Source of the DNA: Escherichia coli
GTDB lineage: Bacteria > Pseudomonadota > Gammaproteobacteria > Enterobacterales > Enterobacteriaceae
Assembly (NCBI RefSeq): GCF_024502345.1
Contig: NZ_JALDNN010000001.1
Direction: 5' to 3' (one strand)
DNA: 64,000 nucleotides
The notes under the pieces are model-generated. The model was not told the DNA's origin, ran no database searches, and was given only the letters and a program-made list of their open reading frames with translations. This document shows, in pieces, positions 30,074-49,770 of the stretch (the stretch's first letter is position 1; every line of letters starts with the position of its first letter). Position numbers and translations under genes: made by a program.

Positions 30074-31375
30074 GTGCATGATAACGGAGTCTTTATGGCA
30101 GGAAAACAAGAGGGAAAGCCACTTTCGTTTAAAGGGGTAGAAATGATGAAGCCAGGCGATAAAGATAAGGCTGATGTAGGCGAAAATCGTGGCTTACGTG
30201 TCTCCTGTGGTGCAACTGGTGTTAAGTCTTTTTTCTACCGTTACACAAGTCCTCTGACTGGCAAACTTGCTCAGGTTAAAATTGGTAACTTCCCGCAGAC
30301 TTCTCTCGCCGCTGCACGTCTTAAACTTCATGAATTAAAGCTCCTCCGGCAGGAAGGTCGGTGCCCTGCGTCAGAGCTTAAGCAAGATAAGCTCCAGCGT
30401 GCGATTGAAGCTGAACAGGCTAAGATCCCTGAATTGACCGTACAGGGATTAGTTGAACTGTATCTTACTGAACGTATTGAGGATCGTAAAACGAAGGACG
30501 GGAAGGTCATTCCCGGTGCCAGAAAACCGAAAGGACAGGCTGAGGTTCGTCGTACTCTCTATGGTGACGCTGTTAAAAGTTTAGGAACCCGGAATGCTGC
30601 TGAGATAACGCGCCAGGATGTTATTAATTTAATCAATGGCATTGTAGCTCGGGGCGCAACCGTACAGGCAGGGAATGTACTGAGAGAACTTTCACTCGCA
30701 TATGAATTTGCAATTGGACTTGGGCGCTTTGATGACAGTTTTGCGAATCCAGCGCTGTTAGCAAAATCTAGCTTACGACAGACCAGAATCAAGCTCACAA
30801 ATGGACGTGGAACACGAGTACTGAGTGAGGACGAGCTTGCAAAATTCCTTAAATGGCTACCGGGTTCGGCTTACACGCCAACGATCAAAAACGTGTTACG
30901 TCTGACTCTCTGGACCGGGTGTCGTACCGGTGAAGTCTGCAATATGGCATGGAAGGATGTTGATCTTGAAAAAGGCACCATTCATCTTAGAGAAACCAAG
31001 ACTGGAGTAGAGCGTTACGTTCAGTTATCGGATCAAGCGATCGACTTTCTCAAGGTTCTACGCCTTACCTCTGACAAATATCTATTCCCTTCACAAGCCA
31101 CTAAAAAGCCAATCCAGCAGAAGTATCTAACTGAAAACTCATGGCGTTTACGTGAAAGCGGTCAAATGCTTGATATACCTCATTGGACGCCGCATGATCT
31201 GCGTCGTACAGTACGAACGGGCTTATCTCGTTTGCAGTGTCCAAATGAGGTGGCTGAGGCCGTATTGGGGCATACACGAGGCGGTGTTGAAGGGATTTAT
31301 AATCTGTATAAGTATGATGCTGAGTGTAGGAAGTGGTTGCAGGTGTGGGCGGATTATTTAGATACTTTAACGTAA
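30074..31375 (+). CDS. Tyrosine-type integrase, P4-like family
   Basis: 433-aa ORF; C-terminal catalytic region with R...HDLRRT...LGH...Y pattern (TPHDLRRTVRTGLSRL, LGHTRGGVEGIYNLY). Confidence 0.85.
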   Translation: MHDNGVFMAGKQEGKPLSFKGVEMMKPGDKDKADVGENRGLRVSCGATGVKSFFYRYTSPLTGKLAQVKIGNFPQTSLAAARLKLHELKLLRQEGRCPASELKQDKLQRAIEAEQAKIPELTVQGLVELYLTERIEDRKTKDGKVIPGARKPKGQAEVRRTLYGDAVKSLGTRNAAEITRQDVINLINGIVARGATVQAGNVLRELSLAYEFAIGLGRFDDSFANPALLAKSSLRQTRIKLTNGRGTRVLSEDELAKFLKWLPGSAYTPTIKNVLRLTLWTGCRTGEVCNMAWKDVDLEKGTIHLRETKTGVERYVQLSDQAIDFLKVLRLTSDKYLFPSQATKKPIQQKYLTENSWRLRESGQMLDIPHWTPHDLRRTVRTGLSRLQCPNEVAEAVLGHTRGGVEGIYNLYKYDAECRKWLQVWADYLDTLT

Positions 31376-32161
31376 TTTGCCAATTAGATGTCCAATCATT
31401 TCGTTACATCAAAGTTGTGCTTAATTTTTATTTTATAAGGATAATATGGATATTTTTTCTGGAGAATCAATTCTTTCCCAAGTCCCTGATGTCAATCATT
31501 GGTTAGCTTCTTACGGCTTGAATTCAACTACATCAAGATATAGCAGATATATCTCTTATATTGATGCTTTTTTTGAGTCGAAAGATCCCACCTCATCTGA
31601 TGGAAGAGACAAATTTGATTTATTAACCAAGTCGTATGCAGAAATTATAGAAATAGTCAGCGTTAAAAAAGCGTTTGAACATGAAAGAAGCCCCGGATTT
31701 ATTGAGCGTTTAAGTAAGGTTGTTTCTGGAGTTGATCATGTTGGTATTAAAGAACCCAGTGAGCCAAGGAATTTTCTCTACGAATTACTTATGGCTGCCC
31801 GGCTAAAAAATGCTGGCTTTATTATTGATTTTGACCAAGGAACTGATGTTGTCGCATATGGATTTGGTCGTGCTATTTTCGTTGAATGTAAACGCACAAC
31901 ATCAATAAGAGGGTTCGAATCTAATTTCATTAAAGGTGGAAAGCAATTAGAGAGAAAGTTTAAGAGTACGAAACTTCCCCATTTTATGATTCGGGGATTT
32001 ATTGCTATCGATGTTTTACCATATGTATTGAACGATATTCCTAAATTTGAAATAGATAATGAAATGGAAGCTCGCATTTGTGCCAGGATAGTGATGGAAC
32101 GTTTTAAGCAAGATGCAAGTAGGCATATTAATAAGTATATATCACGTTATGAAAATGTTAG

Positions 32162-33356
<1,195 letters not shown>

Positions 33357-33775
33357 TTAGTGCAGGGGTGGTGATAATGGCGATGATACCTGTTTGGTTG
33401 CGTGATGTTATATTACTTCATGTTAATGAAATAGCTCATGTAATTCCTCCATCAACTAACACAGAAGATGTAGGTGAAGTCATATTTTTAGCCGAGAAGT
33501 TAAGCTATCCGCTACTTCCTGATTTTTAGTGTGAGTTAAAAGTTGATAGATCAAAAGTGTGTTTTTTTAGATTATATACTTGGATCCAAGCAGTGCTAAG
33601 GTTATTTCCTTAGCTCACTCATAACTAAATAGATATTTAGCTAGGGGGGACGATCAAACGTTAGCTCCTAGCTCATAACGGACGAACTGAGATATTTGTG
33701 CCCTGTAGAAGAGCACATCGACAGATAAAATTTCGACTGATACGGGGTTCGCTAACTGATGCCAGACAGGGCCAC

Positions 33776-34105
33776 TCAGTTCTTTTTCCCGGCCAGCATA
33801 TCAATCATCATGGGATAAATCTTTTCGCACTTCATGCCCGGATTCTGTACTGCGAAACTCCACCCCTCGTCCATCGCCGCAGCAACCTCTGTTGTTGAGG
33901 CTATGGGCCAATCGCTCACGGTGTCGTAGACTTTACTGATAGCCTTGTTCTTATCCATGCCGGTGTGTTGCTGCTGGCACATTCTGACCATTACTTCTGC
34001 GGCCTGAGCAGGCTGGCTTGCCGGGTAAGCAGCCAGCGCCGGGGCGGATGTCGTTGTGATGAGCAGTGCGGTAATAATATGCTTCTTTATTGTGTTACCC
34101 TTCAT
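33776..34105 (-). CDS. Small exported protein (signal peptide), function unknown
   Basis: 109-aa ORF with N-terminal hydrophobic signal (HIITALLITTTSAPALAAYPA); last gene of leftward operon. Confidence 0.5.
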   Translation of the reverse strand: MKGNTIKKHIITALLITTTSAPALAAYPASQPAQAAEVMVRMCQQQHTGMDKNKAISKVYDTVSDWPIASTTEVAAAMDEGWSFAVQNPGMKCEKIYPMMIDMLAGKKN

Positions 34106-34620
34106 TGAACCTGAATGCCCTGAACCGGGCTATTGTCCCATGTCATCGGTCGGTCTTCCGGAATTGCCGGGGCACTGTTAGTGGCCGGTTTATCAACAAC
34201 AGGTTTCGCGCTGGCGGGAAGGTCATCTGGTGAAATAACTCGGGTTATCACACCCATCTTCTCACCAACAGCGGAGTTCATCTGATCGCAGAGGGTTTTT
34301 ATCTGGAGCCGGATACCGCTCTGGTTTATTCCTTCGCTTTTGAATTGCTGCTCAAGAATAAAGCGGTCCTGAAGGGAATGGTAATAGTTAATATTGTCCT
34401 TCGTTAATATCATGATGTTGCCGGTATTATCCTGATAGCGATTGCTGCGGATAAGTTTATCCAGTGCGGTTAAAGCCTCATCGCCAGTGTAACCATACTG
34501 GTGGCAGGTATTCAGGGTGGCATAAGCCTCATACAGCCCCTGCAAATTTTCTGCGGGGAGTGTTTTTGCCCCGGCACAACCTGAAAATGCCAGAAGCAAC
34601 ATAGCAGCGGTTTTCCTCAT
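34102..34620 (-). CDS. Putative lipoprotein, function unknown
   Basis: 172-aa ORF, signal peptide with lipobox-like LAFSGC; overlaps downstream gene by 4 bp. Confidence 0.55.
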   Translation of the reverse strand: MRKTAAMLLLAFSGCAGAKTLPAENLQGLYEAYATLNTCHQYGYTGDEALTALDKLIRSNRYQDNTGNIMILTKDNINYYHSLQDRFILEQQFKSEGINQSGIRLQIKTLCDQMNSAVGEKMGVITRVISPDDLPASAKPVVDKPATNSAPAIPEDRPMTWDNSPVQGIQVQ

Positions 34621-34672
34621 TTTAGGTAGTCTCCTTTCATTGACGTTTCATCATCCGTCATGCGCGTTACAG

Positions 34673-35200
34673 TTAACGGATGCGGATATTTCTGGTGATT
34701 TTTCCATGTGTCAACGGGCTGCGTTTTTCCACAAAGAAATACGCGACATTGAACGCGGATTTGCGATGGTTGCCCCGGCCCAGAGAAGGCCAGCTCCTGA
34801 AGGACTCAATTTGTTCTTCGGTATAGGGTGTGTCAGAAAAATCGAACAGTACAAGCAGGGCTTTGCCGTCATACTTCATCAGTTTCTTCACCTCCGTGCT
34901 GTTGACGGAGGCTGACAGCGCAGAACGGGCAGCTCCCGGCTTACGGACGGCGAACTCTACAGCCACATCGTCAATGACGAAATCAATGTAGCCATGTCCG
35001 GACAAACTGCCCGGTAGTTTTCCCCTAACCTCAGGTGAGAGGCTGTCAGCAAACCAGCCCAGTAGGTAGCAACGCACCAGCGGTAATAGCTCCCGCTCAT
35101 TGCATTCGTTAAGGCGCAGGGTTTTGACAAATGCTTTCCGGTAAAGGGAACTAAAAAGGTACTCAAAGCATTCCGTTACTTCAGTAATAGTGGTCGCCAC
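34673..35200 (-). CDS. Hypothetical protein (175 aa)
   Basis: ORF directly downstream of Ner-like gene on the same strand; no family recognised. Confidence 0.5.
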   Translation of the reverse strand: MATTITEVTECFEYLFSSLYRKAFVKTLRLNECNERELLPLVRCYLLGWFADSLSPEVRGKLPGSLSGHGYIDFVIDDVAVEFAVRKPGAARSALSASVNSTEVKKLMKYDGKALLVLFDFSDTPYTEEQIESFRSWPSLGRGNHRKSAFNVAYFFVEKRSPLTHGKITRNIRIR

Positions 35201-35212
35201 TCTATGCTCCCT

Positions 35213-35491
35213 TCAGCTTTCCTTTTTGACAGACCTGCCTGCGTAGCGCTCAGGCCAGATAGTTTCGGGCGTGGTATCCAGTGCCTCAGCAATAATCTTT
35301 TCTGCCCGTGGATAGTGGCGCTCAAAAGCGTTACTCAGTGTCCTTGAGGCCAGCCCGTGATGCCGGGAGAGAGCAGACAGGGAAAGTCCCCGCTTGTGCA
35401 GGGCGGCGACAATATCAGCCCGGTGCCAGTTAACAGCACTTCCCTTACTTCGCTTTTTTTGCGAATCTGTTGAGTTACTCAATGTATTCAC
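35213..35491 (-). CDS. Ner/Nlp-family HTH DNA-binding regulator
   Basis: 92-aa ORF; WHRADIVAALHKRGLSLSALSR...IWPERY matches the Mu Ner / Sfs7 family pattern. Confidence 0.75.
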   Translation of the reverse strand: MNTLSNSTDSQKKRSKGSAVNWHRADIVAALHKRGLSLSALSRHHGLASRTLSNAFERHYPRAEKIIAEALDTTPETIWPERYAGRSVKKES

Positions 35492-35603
35492 TCCGGGTTG
35501 TTAGTACTGGAGATATTAAAAGCGAACAAAGGGAAGTTATCAAGTTCCTTTTGTGGTTATTTGCGCTCATTTAACTAACGCTTTGATAAGAGGTGAAATT
35601 TTT

Positions 35604-35984
35604 ATGGGCAGTGAACAGATGACTGACCCCTGCGTTACCGGAATGACGGAGAGTGGGGGGTGGCTTACAGCAGAGCAGTTTGCCGGAATGGAAGGGATGC
35701 CGGGCACAGCGAAAGGGGCGCGACTACGTCTGGAAAAGCTCACTGCTCTGCACCCGGAAATCCGCCGCAAACGCACCAGTGGGAAGGGGTTTCTGTACCA
35801 TATCAGCGCGGCAGGGATGGCACTGAAAAGTGAGCGGGATGCGACAGATACCTCAGCAGACGAGCAGCTCAACCTCTGGATACAGCTGTTTCGCACAATG
35901 AAACCGGCCTCCAGGGATAAACTTTTGCAGCAGGCTCTGGCTCAGGTTGCGAGGGACCTGACTAAAGGAGACGTTAACCAGTAA
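35604..35984 (+). CDS. Putative DNA-binding protein, Mu repressor-like N-terminal domain (divergent from ner-like gene)
   Basis: ATG 35604 with RBS gaggtgaaa; motif WLTAEQFAGMEGMPGTAKGARLRLEKL resembles the Mu-type winged-helix DNA-binding domain; weak. Confidence 0.4.
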   Translation: MGSEQMTDPCVTGMTESGGWLTAEQFAGMEGMPGTAKGARLRLEKLTALHPEIRRKRTSGKGFLYHISAAGMALKSERDATDTSADEQLNLWIQLFRTMKPASRDKLLQQALAQVARDLTKGDVNQ

Positions 35985-36031
35985 CAAGTGATAGATACTC
36001 TGGTTGCGCTGGAAGTGATAATAGGAATCAT

Positions 36032-36060
36032 TTGCTTTAACAGTTTGATTTTGCTATAAT
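36032..36060 (+). promoter_or_regulatory. Candidate sigma-70 promoter (TTGCTT-17 bp-TATAAT) upstream of the 207-aa ORF
   Basis: -35 ttgctt 36032-36037, 17-bp spacer, -10 tataat 36055-36060; followed by 12-bp inverted repeat taatacagtggc/gccactgtatta (36061-36100). Confidence 0.4.
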
Positions 36061-36067
36061 TAATACA

Positions 36068-36691
36068 GTGGCAGTCATTGCGTACTCAGCCACTGTATTA
36101 ACCCATCCTGGCTTGTTCACAGCCATCACTTTTCCTGGAATAGCAACAATGACACTTCCCCGAGACGTTCATGCGTCCCGTCAGGGCCAGCATGACTACT
36201 TATGTGGCATCTACAGCTTGATTAACACCCTCAGTTACCTTTATGACGGCAGAGTACGGCGAGAAAAATTAATGTACCGCCTGCTTAGCAGCTATAAGCG
36301 ACGATGGGATTTATTTGATCTCCTGACGCTCGGTCTGGACGAGGAACAAATGGACCACCTGATTGGTGATGTTCTCCTGAAAGGGCATTACGCCCGGCAT
36401 TATCCCCTGAATTTTCATACCCCCTTCCGTTACCGCTCCCTGCGCAGCCGACAGATACTCAGCGACATCAGCGACTGGCTGGCGTTGCCGGAGAACCAGG
36501 CGCAGCGCGTGGTGATTCTGGGCACATCCTGGCACTGGTCTGTGGTAGTCCGTACCGATGCTACCCGGCTGTTCCTGTTTGACAGCTTGGGAATACGCAG
36601 CCAGCGCAGGGATACGTTCTCCGTACAGCCGGAGCTGAAGCGCCACACGCTGCTGCCGGACGCCATCTATTTCGTCGAACGTGAGTTCTGA
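36068..36691 (+). CDS. Hypothetical protein (207 aa; start uncertain, alternative ATG at 36149)
   Basis: ORF upstream of radC-like gene; no family recognised. Confidence 0.45.
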   Translation: MAVIAYSATVLTHPGLFTAITFPGIATMTLPRDVHASRQGQHDYLCGIYSLINTLSYLYDGRVRREKLMYRLLSSYKRRWDLFDLLTLGLDEEQMDHLIGDVLLKGHYARHYPLNFHTPFRYRSLRSRQILSDISDWLALPENQAQRVVILGTSWHWSVVVRTDATRLFLFDSLGIRSQRRDTFSVQPELKRHTLLPDAIYFVEREF

Positions 36692-36713
36692 CCCCTGCAG
36701 AAGGAGACTGACC

Positions 36714-37202
36714 ATGACTTTTACCGCCTGCGACCAGAGCGGTTTTTACCGGACCACCGGGCCGGTGTCCCGCGAGGATATTATCCGCTTTGCCCATACG
36801 CTGCTCTCCCGCCGGTTTCGCAATCGCCGAAAAATTACGTCCTCTAATGATGTTCACCAGTGGCTGGTGCTGAAGCTGGCAGAGGACACCCGGGAGAGCT
36901 TCGGAATGATACTGCTCTCGCAGCAGCACCATCTTCTGGGCTACCACATCCTGTTCACCGGGACGCTGAACCAGACCATGGTTTACCCCCGCGAAATTGT
37001 CGCTCTGGCGCTGACGCATCATGCAGCCGCAGTGATACTGGTCCATAACCACCCAAGCGGTGAGCCTGAGCCGAGCCAGGCCGATAAACTCATTACCCAA
37101 AAAATTACCGATGCGCTTTCACTCCTTGATATCCGCGTCGTGGACCACCTTATTGTGGGTGGTGACGATGCTTACTCCTTTGCAGAACACGGCCTGCTCT
37201 GA
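36714..37202 (+). CDS. RadC-like JAB-domain protein (YeeS/YfjY/YkfG family)
   Basis: start at ATG 36714 after aaggag RBS; JAMM motif region ...AAAVILVHNHPSGEPEPSQADKLIT... and C-terminal DHLIVGGDDAYSFAEHGLL closely resemble E. coli YeeS. Confidence 0.85.
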   Translation: MTFTACDQSGFYRTTGPVSREDIIRFAHTLLSRRFRNRRKITSSNDVHQWLVLKLAEDTRESFGMILLSQQHHLLGYHILFTGTLNQTMVYPREIVALALTHHAAAVILVHNHPSGEPEPSQADKLITQKITDALSLLDIRVVDHLIVGGDDAYSFAEHGLL

Positions 37203-37289
37203 GTGACCTGGTTTAATACACATTAACCACGGTAATCCACGTTCGCCTTATCCCTTCATTTTTAAACTGTAAATACTGAGGTTTTAACC

Positions 37290-37721
37290 ATGAACATCAA
37301 TGCCGTTATTCAGCCGGCAGGCTTTGTGCTGCCTGTCAGTCTGCAGCTGTTCGACATGCTGATGGTAGAAGCAGGCGAAAAAACCGCTAGTAAACATCGC
37401 ATTACCGCCGTTACGCTCAATTTCCGGGACCCGAACTACAGCGCGGAGCGGGGCGGCTATCACCCGGTGGAAATTCGGCTGGTTCACCAGGGGGATGAAT
37501 GGTGCCTGGACTACGCCACCGATTTTGGCTATGTCGGCAACGCTTACCCCGAGCTTGAGAAAATCATCGATATCAGTTGGTCGCAGGGCTACGTCTGGCA
37601 CTGCCGTACAGGGGATTTGTCCCCGTCTGAGGCGCGGGCGCTCTACACCCTGTGGGAGCGCAACTTCCTGAGCTATCACGCCAGTGGGGTCTACATCACC
37701 CGAGTGCTGTGGGAAAGCTGA
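37290..37721 (+). CDS. Hypothetical protein in the position normally held by the CbeA-type antitoxin (143 aa)
   Basis: ORF between radC-like and cbtA-like genes; no similarity to YeeU/YfjZ antitoxins as I recall them. Confidence 0.5.
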   Translation: MNINAVIQPAGFVLPVSLQLFDMLMVEAGEKTASKHRITAVTLNFRDPNYSAERGGYHPVEIRLVHQGDEWCLDYATDFGYVGNAYPELEKIIDISWSQGYVWHCRTGDLSPSEARALYTLWERNFLSYHASGVYITRVLWES

Positions 37722-37864
37722 ACTACTGACCTGAGCTGCCGGGCGCACCGGTAAACATCCGTTCTCCCTTCTGGCGGGCGGGTTTCCATAAGCGCGGCTC
37801 GGGTTGCCGTTCATGTTCGCGCCCTCTTTTCAATACCATTCACATTACCCACGAGAATACTGTC

Positions 37865-38482
37865 ATGAAAAAACAACCTGTCTCACTGGCTCGGGAGACA
37901 TCGTGCTGCCTGTCGCCTGCTGATGTCTGGCGTACCCTGCTGACTCACCTGCTGGCACAGCACTATGGGCTTGCCCTCAACGATACGCCGTTTGGTGAGG
38001 AAGGCACCATTCAGGCGCATATTGACGCTGGTGTTACCATGATGGAAGCCCTGAATACCGTCGTTGAGAAGTATGATCTGGTACGTACAGATCGGGACAG
38101 TGTGGGCCTTCACCCTGGCTCCTCATTGATTACTGCTATTGATGTTCTCCGGGCGCGAAAAGCCACCGGGCTCCTGAAGCGGGGAGCATATCAGTTCGTG
38201 AGCCACATCACGCAGGGGCGCAGGCCCGCCCCGGACAGTGCAGTAACCGCCGGGCCCTCCGCGCCGTTACCATTGCTACCATCGGACACATTCACCCGAC
38301 AGGACGCGGTGTCCATTATGGCGGTGTATGACTGTGTGGCTATTGAGGATGACCAGCATACCCATTTCCGTCTGGCAATACGCGATGCTGAAGGTCAGCT
38401 TATCTGGCGGGCCTGGAACTTTGAGTCCGGAGCCGGGCAGGGGCTTAACCACTATCTGCAACGTTATGGTGTGAAAAAATGA
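37865..38482 (+). CDS. CbtA/YeeV-family type IV toxin homolog with about 75-aa C-terminal extension
   Basis: N-terminal 125 aa (…DVWRTLLTHLLAQHYGLALNDTPFGEEGTIQAHIDAGVTMMEALNTVVEKYDLVRTD…IDVLRARKATGL) align with CbtA (…[37 protein letters not shown]…VEKYALVRTD…IDILRARRATGL); ORF continues to 205 aa. Confidence 0.72.
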   Translation: MKKQPVSLARETSCCLSPADVWRTLLTHLLAQHYGLALNDTPFGEEGTIQAHIDAGVTMMEALNTVVEKYDLVRTDRDSVGLHPGSSLITAIDVLRARKATGLLKRGAYQFVSHITQGRRPAPDSAVTAGPSAPLPLLPSDTFTRQDAVSIMAVYDCVAIEDDQHTHFRLAIRDAEGQLIWRAWNFESGAGQGLNHYLQRYGVKK

Positions 38483-38576
38483 CCACACAGGGCTGAATGG
38501 CATCCCCAGATGAATTGACTGCTTCCCCGGTCTGCATGGCCGGGATACTCCATTTTTAAGTATTGAGGATGATGTT

Positions 38577-39524
38577 ATGACCTCGAACCGCAAGGGCAGG
38601 CGTGCGGAAACTGTGCGCCAACAAAACGTCCCCACCATCAACCCGGCACAGCTTTGGCTGGCAGGTCTGACGCGCGCCGGGCGCAAGGGGATGCAAAGCC
38701 AGCTTCGGCGCTGTGCCGGTATCCTGCTTCCGGGCTCGGATACCGACAGCTACCCCTGGCAGATGCTGAACTACACGGGGATGATGCAGATCCGTGCGCA
38801 CATGCTGGATGCTGGCTATGCTGTCGCGACTGTCAACATGGCACTGTCGGCGCTGAAATCGGTTGCCTTTAGCGCGTTCAGTATGGGTCTGATGGATGCT
38901 GACACGCTTGCGCGCATACGCAACGTCAGGCGGGTCAGTGGTGACGGTTGTAGGCTGGGGCGTGCGCTGGCCCGCCATGAAATCCGGTCAATGCTGGCGG
39001 CGGCAGCGACGTTCTCCACTGTGCGCTGTCAGCGCGAACGGGCCATTTTGTTGCTTCTGTGTGGTGCCGGGCTGCGAGCGGGTGAGCTGGTTGCCCTGAA
39101 TGCGGAGGATATTGACGTTGCCGCAGGGATTGTCTGGGTCAGGGAGGGAAAAGGGCGCAAAAGTCGTGAAATTCACCTTGCCGCGAAGGTATGCACGCAG
39201 CTGCGCCGTTGGCTGAAGTGCCGTGGAGACCATGAAGGGCCGTTGTTCAGTCGTATCAGCCGGGCAGACCGGCCAGGGCCACACAGGCTTACCACGACTG
39301 GATTGACGGGGCTGTTGGCACAGCTACGCGAAGCCGCTGGCGTGGACTATTTCACCCCGCACGACCTCAGACGAACGTTCATCACACAGTTGCTGGAGCA
39401 GGGAACCGACCTCAACGTGGTACGCCAGCTTGCGGGGCATGCCGATATCGCCACAACCACCCGATATGACTACAGGGGCCGGGGTACGCAGGACAGAGCC
39501 TCCAGGGCTTTCTGTTGCTGGTAA
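38577..39524 (+). CDS. Tyrosine recombinase / phage-integrase-family protein (XerC/D-like)
   Basis: 315-aa ORF; catalytic-domain motifs LLLCGAGLRAGELVAL, TPHDLRRTFIT, AGHADIATTTRYDY. Confidence 0.8.
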   Translation: MTSNRKGRRAETVRQQNVPTINPAQLWLAGLTRAGRKGMQSQLRRCAGILLPGSDTDSYPWQMLNYTGMMQIRAHMLDAGYAVATVNMALSALKSVAFSAFSMGLMDADTLARIRNVRRVSGDGCRLGRALARHEIRSMLAAAATFSTVRCQRERAILLLLCGAGLRAGELVALNAEDIDVAAGIVWVREGKGRKSREIHLAAKVCTQLRRWLKCRGDHEGPLFSRISRADRPGPHRLTTTGLTGLLAQLREAAGVDYFTPHDLRRTFITQLLEQGTDLNVVRQLAGHADIATTTRYDYRGRGTQDRASRAFCCW

Positions 39525-39823
39525 ATCTTCATGGGGTGGGGGATGGCCTTCGTCACCTGCTGATTAAATTCACCAGAGGGTCCCGGAGATATTTTTGATG
39601 CCCCAAAGGCACGTCCAGGGCGGGCTCAGTGCTATGGGGAGGCCGGGAAAGTACGACCAACTCACCACCCCTGCTGAATGACACTATCGTACTTCGCGGC
39701 GCGGAGAGTATAACTTGGTAGCTGAGTATTTCTCAGAGCGATTAAAGTAGTTGTCTGTATGCATGTAGCGTCGGGAAACCATGAAACTAAACTCTGAATT
39801 CATTTAGCTGAATTTGCAGGCAA

Positions 39824-40339
39824 CTACGCCGAAGGACTGTCTGCCCGCTCTGTGCCATCCAGCTTTTCCATTGTTTGGATTACCCAGCGAAAATCATTTA
39901 TTTTTTCAGTCGTTTCCTTGCTCCATGTTTTGCCCGTTACTGCTGTTTTTTTCTTCTCTATATCCACTGGCGATGGATATTTTTTACAAAATTTGAGCAT
40001 GATATCCTTCAGTTCACACTTTTCCTTCAACTCATGAAATTTCAGATAGAGTTCTTTCAGCAGTTTCGCTTCTTTCGATACAGGTTCATATAAGTAGTCG
40101 ATGTAGACCATGTTGATCATGTTATCCAGCGCCTGGCGATATACTTTTCCTCTTCCTTTCTTCAGCATTGAATAATCGTCGTCGTCAAGCCAGTTAGCGA
40201 TCTCCAGTAAACGCTCCTGGCTGTCTTCATGCAGGTTGATTTCAAACCGCTTTCCATATTTCTCCTCCAGCCCTTTGCGGCTTTTCTGCTTAGGCGTCCT
40301 GGGCTCCGCCTTAGCCATATTTTCTTCGTTTTTTCCCAT
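39824..40339 (-). CDS. Hypothetical Lys/Glu-rich protein (171 aa), AT-rich gene
   Basis: ORF between second recombinase and alpA, opposite strand; strongly AT-rich; overlapping plus-strand ORFs judged spurious. Confidence 0.45.
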   Translation of the reverse strand: MGKNEENMAKAEPRTPKQKSRKGLEEKYGKRFEINLHEDSQERLLEIANWLDDDDYSMLKKGRGKVYRQALDNMINMVYIDYLYEPVSKEAKLLKELYLKFHELKEKCELKDIMLKFCKKYPSPVDIEKKKTAVTGKTWSKETTEKINDFRWVIQTMEKLDGTERADSPSA

Positions 40340-40545
40340 AACTCATACCTCATTTCGGATTGCCACTATCAGAGATCTTTTTGGACCGTCATAAATCAAT
40401 GACGGTCATTCTACTCCAAAGAATGACCGTCCAAAAGTGGGCCGCGAACACTTTGACCGGCGATCGCCATGAATAATCGGCCGAAATCAACTTTGTAAAG
40501 GGAGGGCTGGCCGCCCACTGGGGGTGGATAGATGGAGTTAAAAAT

Positions 40546-40752
40546 ATGAATAACTGCAGGCTGCTCGATATCAAGACTGTGCTCGGGATGTACCCAGTAT
40601 CACGCGCAACGTTATATCGCCAGATCAAGGCGGGGCTCTTTCCGGAGCCTGTACGCATCGGTGCCCGTCGGGTGGCATGGCGTATGGAGGATATCCACGC
40701 GCATATCAGTGGGCTGCCCAATGTTGAGCTGGCTGAAGCAGCTCGTCTGTAA
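40546..40752 (+). CDS. alpA: AlpA-family phage regulatory protein (excisionase-like HTH)
   Basis: 68-aa ORF MNNCRLLDIKTVLGMYPVSRATLYRQIKAGLFPEPVRIGARRVAWRMEDIHAHI matches AlpA/MerR-type excisionase pattern. Confidence 0.8.
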   Translation: MNNCRLLDIKTVLGMYPVSRATLYRQIKAGLFPEPVRIGARRVAWRMEDIHAHISGLPNVELAEAARL

Positions 40753-40853
40753 GCCTCATATAGCCCCTCGTACAGGGGTTCATTCACCATAGTCAGTAGC
40801 ACCTCTACGGATAGCTACTGACATGAATTGCCGTGAGGCTAAGGGAACTGGCG

Positions 40854-41948
40854 ATGATTACAGTTAATCGTGAGCGTGTGGACAATCTCTCCGGGTCTGT
40901 ATACCTGGGGCGAAATACTGACGGCAATAGGTGCTATGGGCGAATTGATAAACTCGCCTGGGTAATGGATTTGTCTGATGATAGCGAGAATGCAGTGCTG
41001 AGTGGGCGTCTGGCTGGGCTGAGAGCGGGAGGGAACTATATCGTGCGGTGCCGCCCTGCCGGTAAAGGGGAGTGTTCTGGCCTCTATCGATCCGTGGTGG
41101 AGATCCGTCTCAAGAGTAAATCCAGTCATCATCCGCTGATGCTGGTCATTTACTTTGCGCCGACGAATACGGTGCGGGGCTCAGTGCGTATGGAAATGAG
41201 TCCTCAGCACTATTCAGCAGAGCAGATCACAGGACTGTTCATCTGGCTTGGGCGTAAGGGACGTCTGGGGAAGTACCTGTACAGGGGCTTGCGCCAGGCA
41301 TGGGTGACGTCCATTCACTACGCACTGGATGTAAAGGGAATGAAACTTCATGACTACCTGATTGGTCTGGCAAAGGTTCATGATGGTGAGTTTTACGATT
41401 TGCATGGTGAACAGGAAGGGTTGCGTCTGGGCTCTGCCACGCTGGTAGCCTCTGTCTACGCCAAGGTCCATTCTCCGTCGTTGAGCGTGGAGGAGCGCTA
41501 TGCATCTCCAAAGATTACGCTGGAGGAGGCGCAATTCGAGCGTTTTTTACGTCTGGAACTCCGCCTGCAGCCGGGGCGCCAGCAATTGAAGCTAAGTCAG
41601 ATGACGAGTATGACCTGTCTGGTCAGCAGGCTGATGTTCTGGCGTCGGGAGGTACTCCAGGATCGTCGGCTGGATCCGGATTTTGCGCAGCGGCTGGCGT
41701 TGATGTCAGTACCACGTGCACGGGCCACGTTTGAGCCCGCGAGGAGTCTGAATGGCCACAGAGTCAGTGCAACCCCAAAGGCTGCCAGGAAACGCGTGGA
41801 CAAGGTCATGGCTAATTACCGGGCGGCATTGTTTGATTCTGCGGCTATCTGGGACCAGTTACCGGTCATTCTCGCAAAACTCGGGCTTCTCGCGCAGCCT
41901 CAGTACTGGATTTACCGTAATCGCGTGAAGTGGCGAGGGAGCCGCTGA
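40854..41948 (+). CDS. Hypothetical protein (about 364 aa), possibly replication-associated
   Basis: ORF directly downstream of alpA with RBS aagggaa before ATG 40854; family not recognised with confidence. Confidence 0.45.
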   Translation: MITVNRERVDNLSGSVYLGRNTDGNRCYGRIDKLAWVMDLSDDSENAVLSGRLAGLRAGGNYIVRCRPAGKGECSGLYRSVVEIRLKSKSSHHPLMLVIYFAPTNTVRGSVRMEMSPQHYSAEQITGLFIWLGRKGRLGKYLYRGLRQAWVTSIHYALDVKGMKLHDYLIGLAKVHDGEFYDLHGEQEGLRLGSATLVASVYAKVHSPSLSVEERYASPKITLEEAQFERFLRLELRLQPGRQQLKLSQMTSMTCLVSRLMFWRREVLQDRRLDPDFAQRLALMSVPRARATFEPARSLNGHRVSATPKAARKRVDKVMANYRAALFDSAAIWDQLPVILAKLGLLAQPQYWIYRNRVKWRGSR

Positions 41949-42301
41949 AGATAAGCCAGAAGCATATTAGAGGGGGTGTGATGCCACCCTCGTCTGTGGC
42001 GACCAAAAAAATGGCTCCCCCTGATATGTTCTGTGAGGCACGCCTCATCACAGCTGAACAGGGGGTGTGGCTATAGTATGGTGTATACAGTACATACCAG
42101 TACCAGTCTGTTCCCCCTCTGGAACCCTCAATGAGATTGCGACAAGTCACAAGGCATTGTTTTGAGGAAAATTCAGATCCTGAGATAGCCCCCCAAAAAA
42201 TGCAGCCAGCCTGAGTCACATCACTCTGCGCAACCGTAATTCACTGTGCAAATGTACAGCCTGTAAACAGGCAGCATGTTCATAAAACGGAGCACAGTGA
42301 A

Positions 42302-43786
42302 ATGAAAGCCTACTGCACACAAAACAATATTCTCGTCACGGAAAGCACGATGAATGCTTTCAGGGAGGCCATTTTTAGCGTTCCATTCGACGACACATGT
42401 GACGGACGATGCAAGCCAACGTGGTATATGTCCATTGCTATTTTTTTGCAGCATCTTATTTGCAGCGCCACTGCGAGCCGTAACACGCGTAAGCGGTCGC
42501 AATTTAAGGGGAACCGACTATGGACCTGTTCAGTTCCGTTTCCTTATGCACTGGGAGAAAAAGTGGCTCCGGCAGTATTCAGACGCTCAAGAGAGCTACC
42601 GTTTGAAAGAGCGCTGGAAAAGCTGGAGGAAGTAGGGTTTATCAGAATCATTACACACGATGTTATACGTCACAAATGCCGGGAATTTGCGCTTTCTCGG
42701 CGGTTTCTCGACGTGCTGTTTCCCGGGGACAGAACTGCTTATCTCAACCTGGAAGATCGGTATGGCTATCTGACCGATGTTTACCGCAGACGTATGGGAC
42801 CGATGACGCTGGAAGAACGGCTTGCTCAGGCCATGTTACGAAAGTGCAAAGTCAGGCATTTAACGTCAACCCGGAATATACCTGATAAGGCCTTTCGTGA
42901 GCGGGTTGCAGCGGTGTATGACCGGCTTGAAGCGTTGCCGGTTAACATCGATGCGCTGAGGATGTACTGTAACGAGCAACCATCCACTGTGAACAGGGTT
43001 TATTATCACAATTTTATCAGCCATCTTTGTGAAGCCGGTGTTGAGGCTATCAGCCTGAGTCCGTTAATCGTCTCATATCGGCAGGTATATCGTACGGCTA
43101 GGCTGGGCGGGCGTTCGTTTGAGGTGGGGAAGGGGTTTCAGTATCTGCCAAAAGGCATGAAATGGGCATGTCTGGGGCAGGGCTATAACTACGATATAAA
43201 AAGCAGCCAGCTTGAGATACTGCGTCATGAGCTGCAGCGTATCGGATTATCCGATAAAAACCTGAAGCGGCTGGAAACGGATTACATTACAAAGAAACTG
43301 GGCGTCACCACGGATGAGGTAAAACAATTTAGGTTTGCTGCTGTCTTTAGCGCTGGTTCGGTCAGCCTTTCAGTGAAAAGTGGAGTAAGGAAGAGGCTGA
43401 ATAAAGTTCTCGGCGATAAGAGGGCAGAAAACGTGCTCAAACGCTGGAAAAAATTGATGCAACCGCTACGGGAAGATCTGAAGAGGCTGATCGAGGATTA
43501 TCTGGCGACGGGAACCACAAATCGATACGGGCTTTGCGTGAAAAATGCTGTGGGACAAAATTTTAACTGTAGCTGGAAGAATTTCAGCGCCAGACAGGCA
43601 TGGCAGCCAGCGCAGATGCACCGAAAGCTGCTTGCGCACATGTTACAGGGGCTGGAAAGTCAGGCTGTGTACGATTATGTTGCCAGCAATAAAGGCGTTT
43701 GTGCGCTAGAGCATGATGGGTTTGTTACATATGAAGAGATAACTGACTGGTCCCATCCATATCTTTTGATAGAGAAAAAGCATTGA
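42302..43786 (+). CDS. Hypothetical protein (494 aa)
   Basis: long ORF after a 350-bp intergenic gap; no family recognised. Confidence 0.5.
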   Translation: MKAYCTQNNILVTESTMNAFREAIFSVPFDDTCDGRCKPTWYMSIAIFLQHLICSATASRNTRKRSQFKGNRLWTCSVPFPYALGEKVAPAVFRRSRELPFERALEKLEEVGFIRIITHDVIRHKCREFALSRRFLDVLFPGDRTAYLNLEDRYGYLTDVYRRRMGPMTLEERLAQAMLRKCKVRHLTSTRNIPDKAFRERVAAVYDRLEALPVNIDALRMYCNEQPSTVNRVYYHNFISHLCEAGVEAISLSPLIVSYRQVYRTARLGGRSFEVGKGFQYLPKGMKWACLGQGYNYDIKSSQLEILRHELQRIGLSDKNLKRLETDYITKKLGVTTDEVKQFRFAAVFSAGSVSLSVKSGVRKRLNKVLGDKRAENVLKRWKKLMQPLREDLKRLIEDYLATGTTNRYGLCVKNAVGQNFNCSWKNFSARQAWQPAQMHRKLLAHMLQGLESQAVYDYVASNKGVCALEHDGFVTYEEITDWSHPYLLIEKKH

Positions 43787-43922
43787 AGCAAGTTATACAT
43801 TATCTAAATCTGAGGGCTCATAGATTGGGCTGTTGCTCGGTTAAATCATTGTATCTTTTCAGTATGTTATAGTGTATTCTCATTTAAAGTGAGCGTAACT
43901 ATATCCTGAGTCAATTGAAAAT

Positions 43923-45458
43923 ATGAAGCAAGAAACGATCGTTCAAAAAATTTGGAGTCTCTGCAACATACTAAGAGGTGATGGTATCACCTATTATCAG
44001 TATGTTTCTGAACTAAGTTATTTGCTTTTTCTGAAGATTGCTCAAGAAAATGGTTCAGAAAAGCTGATACCTCAAGGCTACCGCTGGGCTGATCTTGAAT
44101 CCCATCCAGAAGCAGGATTATTAGGGTTTTATCAAGAGATGCTCACTCACTTGGGTGCGCATGTTAAAAATGAAATCATAAGAGAGATTTACGCATTCCC
44201 TACAACCGTTTTCTCCCATTCTGAAAATTTAAAAGCTGTTGTAGATGGTATTTCGAAAATAGAGTGGCACCAAGTAGGAAAAGATGGGTTTGGCGACCTC
44301 TATAGTGGTTTAATTGATAAAAGTGCTCAAGATACGCGTTCGGGAGCCGGGCAGTATTTTACTCCACGCTCTTTAGTTAACACGATAGTGAGATTGATAA
44401 AACCGAGTCTTGGCGAATTGATTCAAGATCCTGCGTCAGGAAGTGGTGGCTTCTTAGTTTCTGCTGACAGCTATATTCGAGTCAAATATTCACGAAAAGA
44501 GTATCAATTGAACCCTCCTAAATATCAAGGAGTGGAAATAGAGAAAAATACTCGTCGAATTTGCTTAATGAATACCTTTTTACATGATTTAGATGCACAC
44601 ATTATCTATGGTGATGCACTGACTGATGACGTAGCAGGGTTGGATGAAGCCGATGTAATCTTAGCCAATCCCCCTTTTGGCAATAAGGCTGGGGGACAAC
44701 GTCCTTTACGTAACGATATTCCATTCCCCAATACAAATAAGCAATTAGCTTTTTTGCAGCATATTTATTTGAAGCTTAAAGCTGGCGGTCGAGCTGCTGT
44801 AGTGGTACCCGATAATGTACTATTCGAATCTGGGGTTGGTACCGATGTACGTCGTGACTTAATGAATAAGTGCAATCTTCATACTATCTTGCGACTGCCC
44901 ACTGGTATTTTTTACGCCCAAGGTGTTAAAACCAATGTTCTGTTCTTTACTAAAGGCTCTGACAAAGATAAATATCAACAAGATAGCTGCACTGAGAACG
45001 TCTGGGTATACGATCTACGTACCAATATGCCAAGTTTTGGTAAACGTACACCCTTCGGTAATTCAGATATTGGCTTTGCGGCAGAAGATTTCGGTACAGA
45101 TCAGCACCTCGGCGCGTTCGAAAAAGTGTTCGGAGATAATCCAGACGGCACCAGCAAGCGCACCGAAGGTGAATACAGCTTTGGTGCAACAGATATTGAA
45201 ATTGATACAGAAGCAGTAGAAGAAAACCTGAATGTTGATGAACAGCTAGCCCATTCTCGCTGGCGCTACTTCAGCCGTGAGTGGATAGCCAATAATAAAG
45301 GCGATTCGCTGGATATCTCATGGTTAAAAGACAAAAAGAGTGTCGATGCGGCTGGTTTATCCGAGCCAAACGTTCTCGCTCGCGAGGCAAAAGAAGAATT
45401 AGAAGCAGCATTGAGTGAGCTGGATAGTTTATTGATCGCATTGGAAGGGGCCGAATAA
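43923..45458 (+). CDS. hsdM: Type I restriction-modification N6-adenine DNA methyltransferase subunit
   Basis: 511-aa ORF with GQYFTPR, DPASGSGGFL (SAM binding) and NPPFG catalytic motif. Confidence 0.9.
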   Translation: MKQETIVQKIWSLCNILRGDGITYYQYVSELSYLLFLKIAQENGSEKLIPQGYRWADLESHPEAGLLGFYQEMLTHLGAHVKNEIIREIYAFPTTVFSHSENLKAVVDGISKIEWHQVGKDGFGDLYSGLIDKSAQDTRSGAGQYFTPRSLVNTIVRLIKPSLGELIQDPASGSGGFLVSADSYIRVKYSRKEYQLNPPKYQGVEIEKNTRRICLMNTFLHDLDAHIIYGDALTDDVAGLDEADVILANPPFGNKAGGQRPLRNDIPFPNTNKQLAFLQHIYLKLKAGGRAAVVVPDNVLFESGVGTDVRRDLMNKCNLHTILRLPTGIFYAQGVKTNVLFFTKGSDKDKYQQDSCTENVWVYDLRTNMPSFGKRTPFGNSDIGFAAEDFGTDQHLGAFEKVFGDNPDGTSKRTEGEYSFGATDIEIDTEAVEENLNVDEQLAHSRWRYFSREWIANNKGDSLDISWLKDKKSVDAAGLSEPNVLAREAKEELEAALSELDSLLIALEGAE

Positions 45459-47143
45459 TGATTGAGACTTCTTTACCATGGCTGAGAGTCCAGCTCGGTG
45501 ACGTAGTTCCCTATGGTAAAACCGAAAAATGCGAATTATCTGACGTTACAGGTAACACTTGGGTACTTGAGCTCGAAGATATAGAAAAAGATAGCTCGAA
45601 GATCATACAACGGCTAGATGCAACTGCACGACCATTTAAAAGCACGAAAAATAAATTCCGTAAAGGAGATGTCCTTTACGGGAAACTGCGACCTTACTTA
45701 AATAAAGTTGTCATTGCGGACAGTTCTGGCGTTTGTTCGACTGAAATCATGCCTCTAAATGCTGAGCCATTTATTGACAATAGGTACCTCTTTTACTGGT
45801 TGAAAACTGAAGTTTTTATTGATTTTGTAAATTCTGTAAGCTACGGCGTGAATATGCCTCGACTCGGAACTAAAGATGGATTAGCTGCTCCATTTATTGT
45901 AGCTCCGCTTGCTGAGCAAAAAGTTATTGCCGATAAACTTGATACCTTGTTGGTGCAGGTGGATGCCATTAAGGCTCGCCTCGAACGCATCCCAGAAATC
46001 CTAAAAACCTTCCGCCAATCGATCCTCACCGCCGCAGTTAGTGGGAAGTTGACGGAGGGATGGCGATTAAAGAATAAACTCAGTAATGTAGTTGTAAAAC
46101 AAAATATCAATCTACCAAAATTAACCCCAAATGAACACTACCTCGAACATGTTGAAGGATGGCAATGGGTAAGACTGGGTTCTGTTGTTAGTCTAATAAA
46201 CGGCGATAGAGGAAAAAACTACCCTAATAAAAATGAATATGTTAAGGATGGAATACCGTTCATAAATACAGGGCATATTAATTCAGATGGAACACTTTCT
46301 GATGAACGCATGAATTTTATTTCCAAGGATAAGTTTGACTCCTTAAGTGGGGGAAAGACGAAATCAACAGATCTAGTTTATTGCCTCCGAGGTGCAACTA
46401 TGGGAAAAACTGCACGTGTCCACTACAAAATAGGGGCAATAGCATCCTCTCTTGTAATTATCCGACCGAGTGATTACATAGACAGAGATTTCGCATATTA
46501 TTTTCTTATTAGCCCTCCGGCTAAAGATTTAATTAATGAATTTGATAACGGATCCGCTCAGCCAAATCTATCTGCAAAGAGTTTGTCTACATACCCTTTA
46601 CAACTCCCTTCGTTTAAAGAACAAATCGAAATCGTCAGTCGCGTCGAAGAAATGTTCAACTTTTCATCTCTTGCCGAAGCAAAAGCTAAAACTGCATTAG
46701 AGCGTGTCAATAAAATTACTCAATCAATCCTAGCCAAAGCTTTCCGAGGCGAACTCACTGCAGATTGGCGCGCCGCCAACCCGGATTTAATCAGCGAAGA
46801 GAAAAGTGCTGAAGCTTTGCTGGAAAAAATTAAGGCAGAACGTGAAGCCATCGAAAAACAACCTAAGCCAACACGTTCCGTTATAAAAAAAAATACAGGT
46901 GGCCGTATGAGTAAACAGATTATCAAAGTGGTTGAAGCGCTAAAACAAGCGGGAAAACCGCTTAGTGGCCAACAATTGTTAGCTGCAGCTGGTTACCCTA
47001 GTGATAGCAGTACTGAGCAACTGGAACAGTTCTTTCTGGATATACGTGACGCTCTTACCATAGAAGAGTCCATTGTAAAGCTTGAGCGCGGTGGCGACAG
47101 TCAAGATTGGTTCGCCTTGGCTAATAATAAAGCAAAGAACTAA
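45458..47143 (+). CDS. hsdS: Type I restriction-modification specificity subunit (two target-recognition domains)
   Basis: 561-aa ORF overlapping hsdM stop (ATAATG); repeated conserved segments (IPEILKTFRQSIL..., ITQSILAKAFRGELT) typical of HsdS central and C-terminal regions. Confidence 0.8.
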   Translation: MIETSLPWLRVQLGDVVPYGKTEKCELSDVTGNTWVLELEDIEKDSSKIIQRLDATARPFKSTKNKFRKGDVLYGKLRPYLNKVVIADSSGVCSTEIMPLNAEPFIDNRYLFYWLKTEVFIDFVNSVSYGVNMPRLGTKDGLAAPFIVAPLAEQKVIADKLDTLLVQVDAIKARLERIPEILKTFRQSILTAAVSGKLTEGWRLKNKLSNVVVKQNINLPKLTPNEHYLEHVEGWQWVRLGSVVSLINGDRGKNYPNKNEYVKDGIPFINTGHINSDGTLSDERMNFISKDKFDSLSGGKTKSTDLVYCLRGATMGKTARVHYKIGAIASSLVIIRPSDYIDRDFAYYFLISPPAKDLINEFDNGSAQPNLSAKSLSTYPLQLPSFKEQIEIVSRVEEMFNFSSLAEAKAKTALERVNKITQSILAKAFRGELTADWRAANPDLISEEKSAEALLEKIKAEREAIEKQPKPTRSVIKKNTGGRMSKQIIKVVEALKQAGKPLSGQQLLAAAGYPSDSSTEQLEQFFLDIRDALTIEESIVKLERGGDSQDWFALANNKAKN

Positions 47144-47152
47144 GGACAGCCC

Positions 47153-48757
47153 ATGAAAGTCGACAAACTGCATATTCGCTCACGCTTTAAAAATCTTGAA
47201 AACGTGAAAGTGGACTTTGACGAAAACCACCTGATGACCGTTATCGTAGGCCGTAATGGTTCCGGTAAGTCCAATGTTCTAGAAGCCTTGGTTGCTATAT
47301 TTCGCAATCTTGATTTAGGTGAAGCACCAACATTTTCTTATGAGTTGGACTATCAACTAGGTGAGGAAGCCGGGGTTAAGTGGTATGACGTCAAGGTTGA
47401 TGCAGATCCAGACCGCGGAACGCTAGCAAAGCAATACCAAGTTTATGTCAAAGATAAACACGATAGCAAAGCGGATTTCAAGCTTACACCCTTCTCCAAA
47501 GTGAAACGCGATAAGAAAACCAAACAAGCAGAGTTTCTTCCTAACTTTCTATTCGCCTATTATTCCGGACCATCGGATAGATTAGAAAAATACTTTCGAA
47601 AGCATCGTGATGATTATTATCGAAACCTACTCTACAACAAGCTTGACTTGAAAGCAGATATTCGTTCTCTATTTTATGCCAAACCCTATCACAGTCAGTT
47701 TGTGCTCTTGGCATTTTTCCTGTCAGATGAAAATAGTCCTCAGCGCAAGTTTATTAAGGAGCATTTGGGTATTGAGGGATTGGACAGTATTCATTTTGTG
47801 ATGCGCCAACCTGAGTGGGCTAAGCTGAAGGGGGAATTATTCTGGGGAGCACAAGGTGTAGTTCGTCGCTTTTTGGATGAATTGATACAGCACACATTGT
47901 CACCGATAAAAGTAACTCGTCAAGAAGATACGTCGTTAACGGGTAGTTATATTCGAAATGAGTTCTTTCATCTATTTTTACCTGACGTAAACGCACTACA
48001 TGAATTTGCTAGAGATCTCAGTGCTGACGAACTGTTTAAAATGCTTGAAAGCACTCTGCTGTCAGAAATTATCTCTGAGGTTAGCATACGGGTGAAAGTA
48101 ACCAGCAGCAGGGAGCCTCTCACTTTCCGTGAACTTAGCGAAGGTGAACAACAGCTATTAACCGTATTGGGCTTACTCTGGTTCACCGGTGGTAAAGATT
48201 CCTTATTTTTACTCGACGAACCTGATACCCACCTTAATCCGTCATGGGCCGTTAAATACCTTAAATTCCTGCGTGAATTCGTACCCAATCATGAAACCAG
48301 CCATTTACTAATGGTCACACACCATCCTTTAGCTATTGCCGAGCTGAAGAAACAACAAGTACAAGTCATGTGGCGTGACGATGAAAATAATGTTCACTCA
48401 CAAGAGCCTTATATAGATCCTCGTGGCGCTGGCTTTATGGCCACACTTACTGAGATTTTTGGTCTAAATACAACACTGGATCTGGAAACCCAAAAGTTAT
48501 TGGACGATAGGAACGAACTAGCCCATATCGAAAATCGAACAGAAGATCAGAACAACCAGCTTGACCTTCTTAATGATGAGTTAAACAGACTAGGATTTTC
48601 ACTTGAAAACAGGGACCCGTTATACAGCGAGTTTCTTTTAGCATGGCAAGACCTAAGATACAGCGATAAACCACCACTAACACCGGATAAAGCGGCTCAG
48701 AGACGAGCTGCTATGAAAAATGTAATTGAGGCGCTTAAAGCTAAGAAGGGTTGCTAA
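47153..48757 (+). CDS. ABC-type (AAA_15/21-like) ATPase, Septu PtuA-like
   Basis: 534-aa ORF; Walker A VGRNGSGKSNVLEAL, signature LSEGEQQLL, Walker B LFLLDEPDTHLNP, H-loop VTHHP; starts 10 bp after hsdS. Confidence 0.7.
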   Translation: MKVDKLHIRSRFKNLENVKVDFDENHLMTVIVGRNGSGKSNVLEALVAIFRNLDLGEAPTFSYELDYQLGEEAGVKWYDVKVDADPDRGTLAKQYQVYVKDKHDSKADFKLTPFSKVKRDKKTKQAEFLPNFLFAYYSGPSDRLEKYFRKHRDDYYRNLLYNKLDLKADIRSLFYAKPYHSQFVLLAFFLSDENSPQRKFIKEHLGIEGLDSIHFVMRQPEWAKLKGELFWGAQGVVRRFLDELIQHTLSPIKVTRQEDTSLTGSYIRNEFFHLFLPDVNALHEFARDLSADELFKMLESTLLSEIISEVSIRVKVTSSREPLTFRELSEGEQQLLTVLGLLWFTGGKDSLFLLDEPDTHLNPSWAVKYLKFLREFVPNHETSHLLMVTHHPLAIAELKKQQVQVMWRDDENNVHSQEPYIDPRGAGFMATLTEIFGLNTTLDLETQKLLDDRNELAHIENRTEDQNNQLDLLNDELNRLGFSLENRDPLYSEFLLAWQDLRYSDKPPLTPDKAAQRRAAMKNVIEALKAKKGC

Positions 48758-49599: not shown

Positions 49600-49770
49600 T
49601 TGTTTATCTTTCTGATAATGGGGTTGTCCGTTAGCCAACCTGATATATTGCTTAAAGGGCTTGCCCGATGAGTGAGCCTTTGACGGGGCTTGATATGAAT
49701 TTGCGTAGAAGTTTTGGTATACTGTTTAAACGATGTCTTTCAGCCCAGATTCAACTTCTTAGGAGTGATT

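Follow-up and report, generated by a model that had tools for sequence, protein, structure and literature searches.

The window examined here, a stretch of 64,000 nucleotides of Escherichia coli DNA (contig NZ_JALDNN010000001.1), contains a gene for a 205-residue protein (37865–38482, plus strand, stop codon included) in which a toxin domain of the CbtA type is fused to a DUF905 domain, and which is not accompanied by a gene for the antitoxin CbeA. Very probably, this locus is a type IV CbeA/CbtA toxin–antitoxin (TA) module minus its antitoxin gene, borne as accessory cargo on a defence-island backbone located between mutS and ygbA; the DUF2787 gene found just upstream belongs to that backbone and is not known to have any tie with the toxin. 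In this island family, the toxin is a conserved two-domain protein with a CbtA domain followed by a disordered linker of ~25 residues and a YkfF-like DUF905 domain. In the lineage of the window, one deletion of ~395 bp, ending at the cbeA stop codon, has taken away the antitoxin gene and spared the toxin's own leader; in the mechanism that we propose, the orphan toxin would then have been tolerated by the host.

The Pfam model of the CbtA_toxin domain (PF06755) matches residues 1–111 of the 205-residue protein (37865..38197, plus strand) over 111 of its 112 positions (E 3.7e-39), and tblastn aligns 121 residues with K-12 CbtA at 49.6% identity. About 80 residues follow the toxin domain. The original prediction, made from the sequence alone, had described a CbtA-type open reading frame (ORF) with an extension, and this description is borne out, as are the coordinates given for that ORF and for its upstream neighbour. 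Residues 137–205 (38273..38479, plus strand) match DUF905 (PF06006, E 2.2e-27, Pfam), and residues 137–204 can be aligned with residues 6–73 of YkfF (Protein Data Bank (PDB) entry 2HJJ; E 6.7e-21). As judged from these matches, the C-terminal extension is a YkfF-like DUF905 domain, joined to the toxin domain by a Pro/Ala-rich linker (residues 112–136, 38198..38272, plus strand) that is predicted to be disordered and differs in length among the relatives. The suggestion that the extension might be a fusion with a yeeW-like gene therefore held with respect to the fusion itself, since the ORF is conserved, and failed with respect to its partner: a tblastn search of the window with K-12 YeeW gave nothing significant (E > 2), and Pfam gives DUF905 instead. 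An AlphaFold2 model of the fusion, built from 28 sequences, predicts a helical toxin domain, a linker in which the predicted local distance difference test (pLDDT) score falls below 50 at residues 118–133, and a DUF905 domain (pLDDT 78–87) comprising a helix, three strands, and another helix.

Both domains are found together in ~20 clusters at 90% identity, with proteins of 193–210 residues that are 60–97% identical to the protein of the window. When 1.84 billion proteins, each representing a cluster at 50% identity, were searched, the two-domain span was present in one of them only, all other matches being confined to CbtA or to DUF905. The fusion occurs in 37 of 5,426 complete E. coli genomes (five with the window's allele, five of the KL53 type, ~25 of the AR_0128 type, and two of the CPE35 type), as well as in Salmonella. 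In all 37 genomes, the Prokaryotic Genome Annotation Pipeline (PGAP) of RefSeq splits the ORF into a "partial CbtA pseudogene" and a "DUF905 family protein" of 54–56 residues, as can be seen in NZ_LR890349.1, NZ_CP030919.1, and NZ_CP021722.1. The pseudogene flag is an annotation artefact, since it arises from the two-domain nature of the protein and none of the loci examined has an interrupted ORF. In particular, the homologous islands, which had been pointed out as the place to look for an interruption of the toxin ORF, contain none, and each of the three cbeA-less alleles has the ORF at its full length. A stop-codon loss confined to one strain, also considered at the outset, does not account for an extension that is found in ~20 clusters and down to 60% identity. 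Over long range, the ratio of nonsynonymous to synonymous substitution rates (dN/dS) is 0.07–0.24 in both domains of the fusion, which corresponds to purifying selection. The fusion is a real, narrow subfamily of CbtA, and not a read-through accident. An arrangement that could be its precursor was not found, the closest single-domain CbtA loci (from Hafnia) having DUF5983 and not DUF905 downstream, and full-text literature searches returned no account of a CbtA–DUF905 fusion.

No CbeA-like sequence was found in the whole window when it was searched with three CbeA proteins (tblastn, best E 0.11), in agreement with the earlier observation that a recognizable CbeA is missing. In alignments, the window is shorter by a net ~395 bp than the homologous loci L001, L009, and L015. 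Homology picks up again from position 37752, exactly at the stop codon of cbeA (TAAAC...), and this position marks the 3′ breakpoint of the deletion. The toxin leader that starts there (113 nt, 37752..37864, plus strand) is conserved: in the cbeA-bearing relatives, it fills the space that separates the stop codon (TAA) of cbeA from the start codon of the toxin gene, and it hardly differs from the corresponding spacer of L009, which carries cbeA. The 30 nt that precede it (37722..37751) form the deletion scar, in the place where the relatives have cbeA and its ribosome-binding region. A scan of the region 36600–38700 for promoters and terminators gave no more sites than are found in shuffled sequence, with nothing above chance in the toxin leader, and is thus uninformative on the expression of the toxin.

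The deletion junction is common to the window and to L014 and L018, which are independent contigs and encode toxins that are 97% and 90% identical, respectively, to that of the window; the lineage of the window therefore comprises three cbeA-less toxin alleles, 90–100% identical. In turn, a cbeA gene encoding 118–121 residues (Pfam CbeA_antitoxin) is located between the DUF2787 gene and the fused toxin in L001, L005, L009, L011, L015, L016, and L017, and only its 3′ end remains, at the contig edge, in L007. The antitoxin gene accompanies an intact fusion of 205–210 residues in E. coli KL53 (87% DNA identity) and AR_0128 (85%), as well as on a Salmonella plasmid, and further contigs of Salmonella and E. 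coli are also among the cbeA-bearing relatives. Since the window, L014, and L018 have this junction in common, and the deeper branches represented by AR_0128 and L017 (dS > 1) carry cbeA, these data are most simply read as a single loss of an ancestral cbeA in the lineage to which the window belongs. On the same simplest reading, the ancestral order is radC–DUF2787–cbeA–cbtA::DUF905–integrase, which most relatives keep. The 143-residue gene was thus wrongly assigned to the antitoxin position, as seven loci have cbeA between it and the toxin, and the window has lost cbeA by deletion.

A variant of the fusion with a short linker (193 residues) is found in E. coli CPE35 (L029, 4516–5537) and in L008 (17–1038), in a CP4-like array (GTPase–DUF932–fusion) where a truncated DUF932 gene immediately precedes it and no cbeA is adjacent. 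This variant represents a second, independent loss of cbeA.

Where cbeA is retained beside the fusion, its dN/dS is 0.12–0.32, again a sign of purifying selection, which argues that the fused toxin would still be active and still be countered by CbeA. The growth inhibition expected of a CbtA/CbeA module, acting via FtsZ and/or MreB and neutralized by CbeA, would have its only indirect support in this selection on the adjacent antitoxin genes of the relatives.

The 143-residue protein encoded upstream of the toxin (37290–37721, plus strand) matches DUF2787 (PF10980, E 1.4e-34, Pfam) and is homologous to VC0508 from the VSP-II island of Vibrio cholerae (PDB 2W56 and 2V1L), a member of the same family whose fold it also matches. 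Its identity as a divergent CbeA is excluded: comparison with two CbeA proteins by BLASTP gave E values of 0.88 and 2.9, profile–profile comparison with CbeA in hhalign a probability of 0.5%, and comparison of the folds no likeness. The original prediction had likewise seen no resemblance of this protein to YeeU/YfjZ-type antitoxins. Aeromonas, Pectobacterium, and E. coli NCTC11121 have this island backbone with DUF2787 but with no toxin. In Aeromonas caviae, HTH_35, two hypothetical genes, and RadC come first, DUF2787 then immediately precedes the integrase, and AlpA and cargo follow; the backbone of Pectobacterium, also devoid of a TA module, has a slightly different gene order, and in NCTC11121 a type I restriction–modification (RM) system directly follows DUF2787. 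Its presence in such toxin-less backbones indicates a backbone gene that is independent of the toxin, and published work counts DUF2787 among the core genes of pipolins and of elements related to them (PMC11551731). It is thus a backbone gene of the mutS–ygbA island and not a replacement antitoxin. Full-text literature searches found no account of any function of DUF2787. An ORF of 176 residues runs antisense to the entire gene (37284–37814, minus strand); it is most likely spurious, of a kind that is common in G+C-rich coding sequence, since the plus-strand frame has strong matches in Pfam and in the PDB.

In Serratia fonticola, a 218-residue protein (P0117; L019, 2246–2902, and L020, 130–786) combines a partial CbtA-like domain, fused in frame, with a complete DUF2787. 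The CbtA-like part comprises residues 6–67, corresponding to model positions 21–82 (Pfam E 2.1e-15). The gene is located in the same island backbone and keeps the internal ATG of the DUF2787 gene. No separate CbtA-like ORF that would parallel this fusion was found 5′ of DUF2787 in Pectobacterium.

Comparison with the CbeA/CbtA (YeeU/YeeV) module of CP4-44 and its paralogues YafW/YkfI and YfjZ/YpjF reveals a full-length CbtA_toxin domain common to all of them, and the relatives of the window have a bona fide cbeA immediately upstream and radC further upstream, as in CP4-44. The order of the K-12 module, checked in the genome, is radC–yeeT–cbeA–cbtA–yeeW. The toxin of the CbeA/CbtA module is a single-domain protein of ~124 residues, whereas that of the window has 205 residues with the fused DUF905. 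DUF987 (yeeT) lies between radC and the module in K-12, but DUF2787 takes this place here, and DUF5983 (yeeW), located downstream in K-12, has no counterpart. The PF06154 antitoxin gene found immediately upstream of the toxin in the known module is deleted in the window, where the upstream gene is DUF2787. In turn, YkfF of CP4-6, the DUF905 protein of known structure (2HJJ, with a chain of 87 residues), is free-standing and located elsewhere in CP4-type arrays, whereas in the window DUF905 forms the C terminus of the toxin.

Another feature of the fusion family is found at position 65 of the toxin domain. All 19 fusion-family proteins tallied have Ala, Thr, Ser, or Asp there, and none has Phe; an unrelated DUF905 protein (P0092), counted in the same tally, has Cys. 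The toxin of the window has Thr65, whereas CbtA, YkfI, and YpjF of K-12 have Phe65. Among the single-domain sequences tallied, Phe65 is present in 53 of 70, and the other 17 comprise six truncated sequences of the fusion family and 11 with Val, Ala, or Asp. It has been reported that Phe65 is conserved in CbtA, YkfI, and YpjF, and that its substitution by Ser abolishes the binding of FtsZ, leaving MreB-dependent toxicity intact (PMC5624674). We can speculate on this basis that, in the fusion family, the contact with FtsZ may be altered or gone. In contrast, position 15 is uninformative, since Cys15 of the window is also present in YkfI and YpjF.

The loss of cbeA is probably tolerated. A K-12 strain without all three CbeA-type antitoxin genes has normal growth and viability, the operons are weakly transcribed, and YfjZ neutralizes the non-cognate toxin YkfI (PMC5371832). 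CbeA binds and bundles both FtsZ and MreB, does not bind the toxin, and also counters unrelated inhibitors of FtsZ (PMC5624674); since it acts on the targets and not on the toxin, any cbeA paralogue should work in trans. Orphan toxins are, moreover, common in E. coli genomes (PMC10790755). In the mechanism proposed here, toxins of the CbtA family would not be lethal at native expression in the absence of the antitoxin, paralogues of cbeA elsewhere in the genome would act in trans, protecting FtsZ and MreB, and a fusion devoid of Phe65 may act through MreB alone, or only weakly. A probe in which the DUF2787-junction region was joined to K-12 cbeA matched between one and four extra places in each of the five complete genomes with the window's allele.

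Several points weigh against the explanation given above. The extra places matched by the probe are almost certainly cbeA paralogues, since its DUF2787 half is rare (~40 genomes) compared with the 4,999 genomes that match the probe overall, and this identification is derived from place counts. The AlphaFold2 model presents the toxin domain as helical with only moderate confidence (mean pLDDT 68.6). In alignments, the 30-nt scar could not be confidently assigned either to cbeA or to its upstream hairpin. The toxicity of the fusion family is a prediction from sequence. Finally, the short-range dN/dS of the CbtA domain is 0.7–1.0 (window, L001, L009, L014, and L018), whether cbeA is present or not, reflecting either relaxed or diversifying selection, or noise from small counts; some alleles, including that of the window, may already be functionally relaxed.

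These values bear on the possibility, which we regard as doubtful, that the toxin gene in the lineage of the window is an inert relic that has been decaying since the module broke. The CbtA part is marked both partial and pseudo by PGAP, the dN/dS of the CbtA domain among the three cbeA-less alleles is 0.70–0.84, Phe65 is absent, and orphan toxins are frequent in E. coli, all of which speaks for a relic. However, the ORF is full length not only in the three cbeA-less alleles but also in all fusion loci translated in full, and the flag is an artefact of a two-domain protein. A pair that retains cbeA (L001–L009) has the same short-range dN/dS (0.82, with small counts in both comparisons), whereas the ratio between distant alleles is ~0.2, and the absence of Phe65 is a trait of the whole family, older than the deletion. 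Since the cbeA-retaining pairs have the same short-range dN/dS, a decay of the orphan copies cannot be deduced from these data.

The DUF905 domain might alternatively be a modulator in cis that attenuates or retargets the CbtA domain, which would make CbeA dispensable and allow the fusion to persist with no adjacent antitoxin. The conservation of the fusion, with both of its domains under purifying selection, is consistent with such a role, as are the absence of Phe65 from every member of the family and the loss of cbeA, at least twice, with the fusion ORF remaining intact (in the lineage of the window and in the 193-residue variant of CPE35 and L008). We nevertheless consider this role unlikely, as cbeA is kept under purifying selection beside the fusion in all other lineages examined, and the locus can be explained without it. 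Furthermore, the AlphaFold2 model consists of two independent domains with a disordered linker and predicts no fixed packing of CbtA against DUF905 (predicted template modelling score, pTM, 0.40); in the absence of confident packing, it offers no structural support for inhibition in cis. CbtA also remains toxic with green fluorescent protein (GFP) fused to its C terminus (PMC5624674), so that a C-terminal appendage alone does not disarm the toxin.

In a broader version of the latter idea, to which we give little credence, the CbtA-like helical domain, DUF905/YkfF, and DUF2787/VC0508 would belong to one functional network, in which the fused DUF905 would retarget or self-limit the toxin and DUF2787 would act with or on the CbtA-like domain. 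Retargeting or self-limitation by DUF905, if true, would explain both the family-wide loss of Phe65 and the two independent losses of cbeA, and the Serratia protein, in which a CbtA-like domain was independently joined to DUF2787, is what would lead to such an action of DUF2787. It is very unlikely that the DUF2787 protein by itself serves the toxin as a non-canonical antitoxin or as a functional partner, as had been proposed in the original prediction: it adjoins the toxin in the window, synteny of the two genes extends to all E. coli and Salmonella loci examined, and P0117 hints at a functional link, but DUF2787 is also present in toxin-less copies of the same backbone, in Vibrio VSP-II, and in pipolins, a normal cbeA separates it from the toxin in most relatives, it resembles CbeA in neither sequence, profile, nor fold, and its dN/dS (0.11–0.28) is alike with or without cbeA.

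The type IV module that has lost its antitoxin gene is part of an integrative defence island of ~20 kb (30074..50555), delimited between mutS and ygbA by the annotation of the corresponding region of E. coli MSB1_9D. Four E. coli strains, MSB1_9D, ES10, ET490, and KMi029, match this region on their chromosomes with 99.9% identity. The island starts with a 433-residue integrase, followed by a probable insertion of IS5, an SfsB-like helix–turn–helix protein, several hypothetical genes, RadC, DUF2787, and the fusion toxin, after which come a second tyrosine recombinase, AlpA, the M and S subunits of a type I RM system, Septu PtuA/PtuB, and Fic. The integrase, the SfsB-like protein, and Fic were annotated with NCBIfam, and PtuA/PtuB with PADLOC. 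The toxin, the DUF2787 protein, and the neighbouring hypothetical proteins have no family match in either PADLOC or NCBIfam, and neither have the 371- and 494-residue ORFs of the island.

The RadC/JAB-domain gene (36714..37202, plus strand; NCBIfam TIGR00608, E 1.5e-40) belongs to the backbone, and its RefSeq relatives are annotated as JAB domain or RadC family proteins. The second recombinase (38577..39524, plus strand; 315 residues, XerC/D-like) matches NCBIfam TIGR02224 with E 9e-36, under the curated cut-off; in almost every relative examined, the gene located just before it is that of the toxin or that of DUF2787. The cargo (43923–49599) comprises the methylase and specificity subunits of the type I RM system, with no restriction subunit annotated in this interval, followed by Septu PtuA/PtuB (PADLOC E 2e-215 and 1e-99). 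The same slot is occupied in the relatives by RADAR, a gene for a YobI ATPase, GmrSD, or GASH/DO-GTPase genes. The distal end of the island carries a Fic/DOC family protein (49938–50555, minus strand) with weak matches to VbhT/Fic adenylyltransferases (E 7.5e-20, under the curated cut-offs).

A transposase ORF of 338 residues (32194–33210) is located just after an ORF of 247 residues (31446–32189); judging by its InsH-like sequence, we take it to be of the IS5 type. At the corresponding site, MSB1_9D has an uninterrupted hypothetical gene of 294 residues, and the strain of the window thus appears to carry an insertion sequence in its island.

According to published work (PMC11551731), gammaproteobacterial pipolins and related elements share a core of DUF2787 and two tyrosine recombinases, set beside defence cargo that can be exchanged. 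This core is found here as the 433-residue integrase, DUF2787, the 315-residue recombinase, and AlpA, followed by the type I RM, Septu, and Fic cargo. The hallmark of pipolins is, however, the primer-independent polymerase piPolB: no polymerase is annotated in the island of MSB1_9D, and no polymerase family appeared in the NCBIfam scans of the window's island, although no sensitive profile search for piPolB was made.

These results do not overturn the current understanding of the CbeA/CbtA modules, the missing antitoxin being the outcome of a plain deletion and the 143-residue gene belonging to the island backbone. They correct a systematic mis-annotation in RefSeq of a conserved two-domain toxin, and they describe a subfamily without the residue known to bind FtsZ, which could be used to separate the activities directed at MreB and FtsZ and to probe the role of DUF905. 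If the three families should indeed form one functional network, this would provide the first functional handle on DUF905 and DUF2787, two structurally solved yet unexplained families. The locus itself shows, in a natural setting, a type IV module whose toxin has outlasted the adjacent antitoxin, which fits a CbeA that protects the targets of the toxin and acts in trans.

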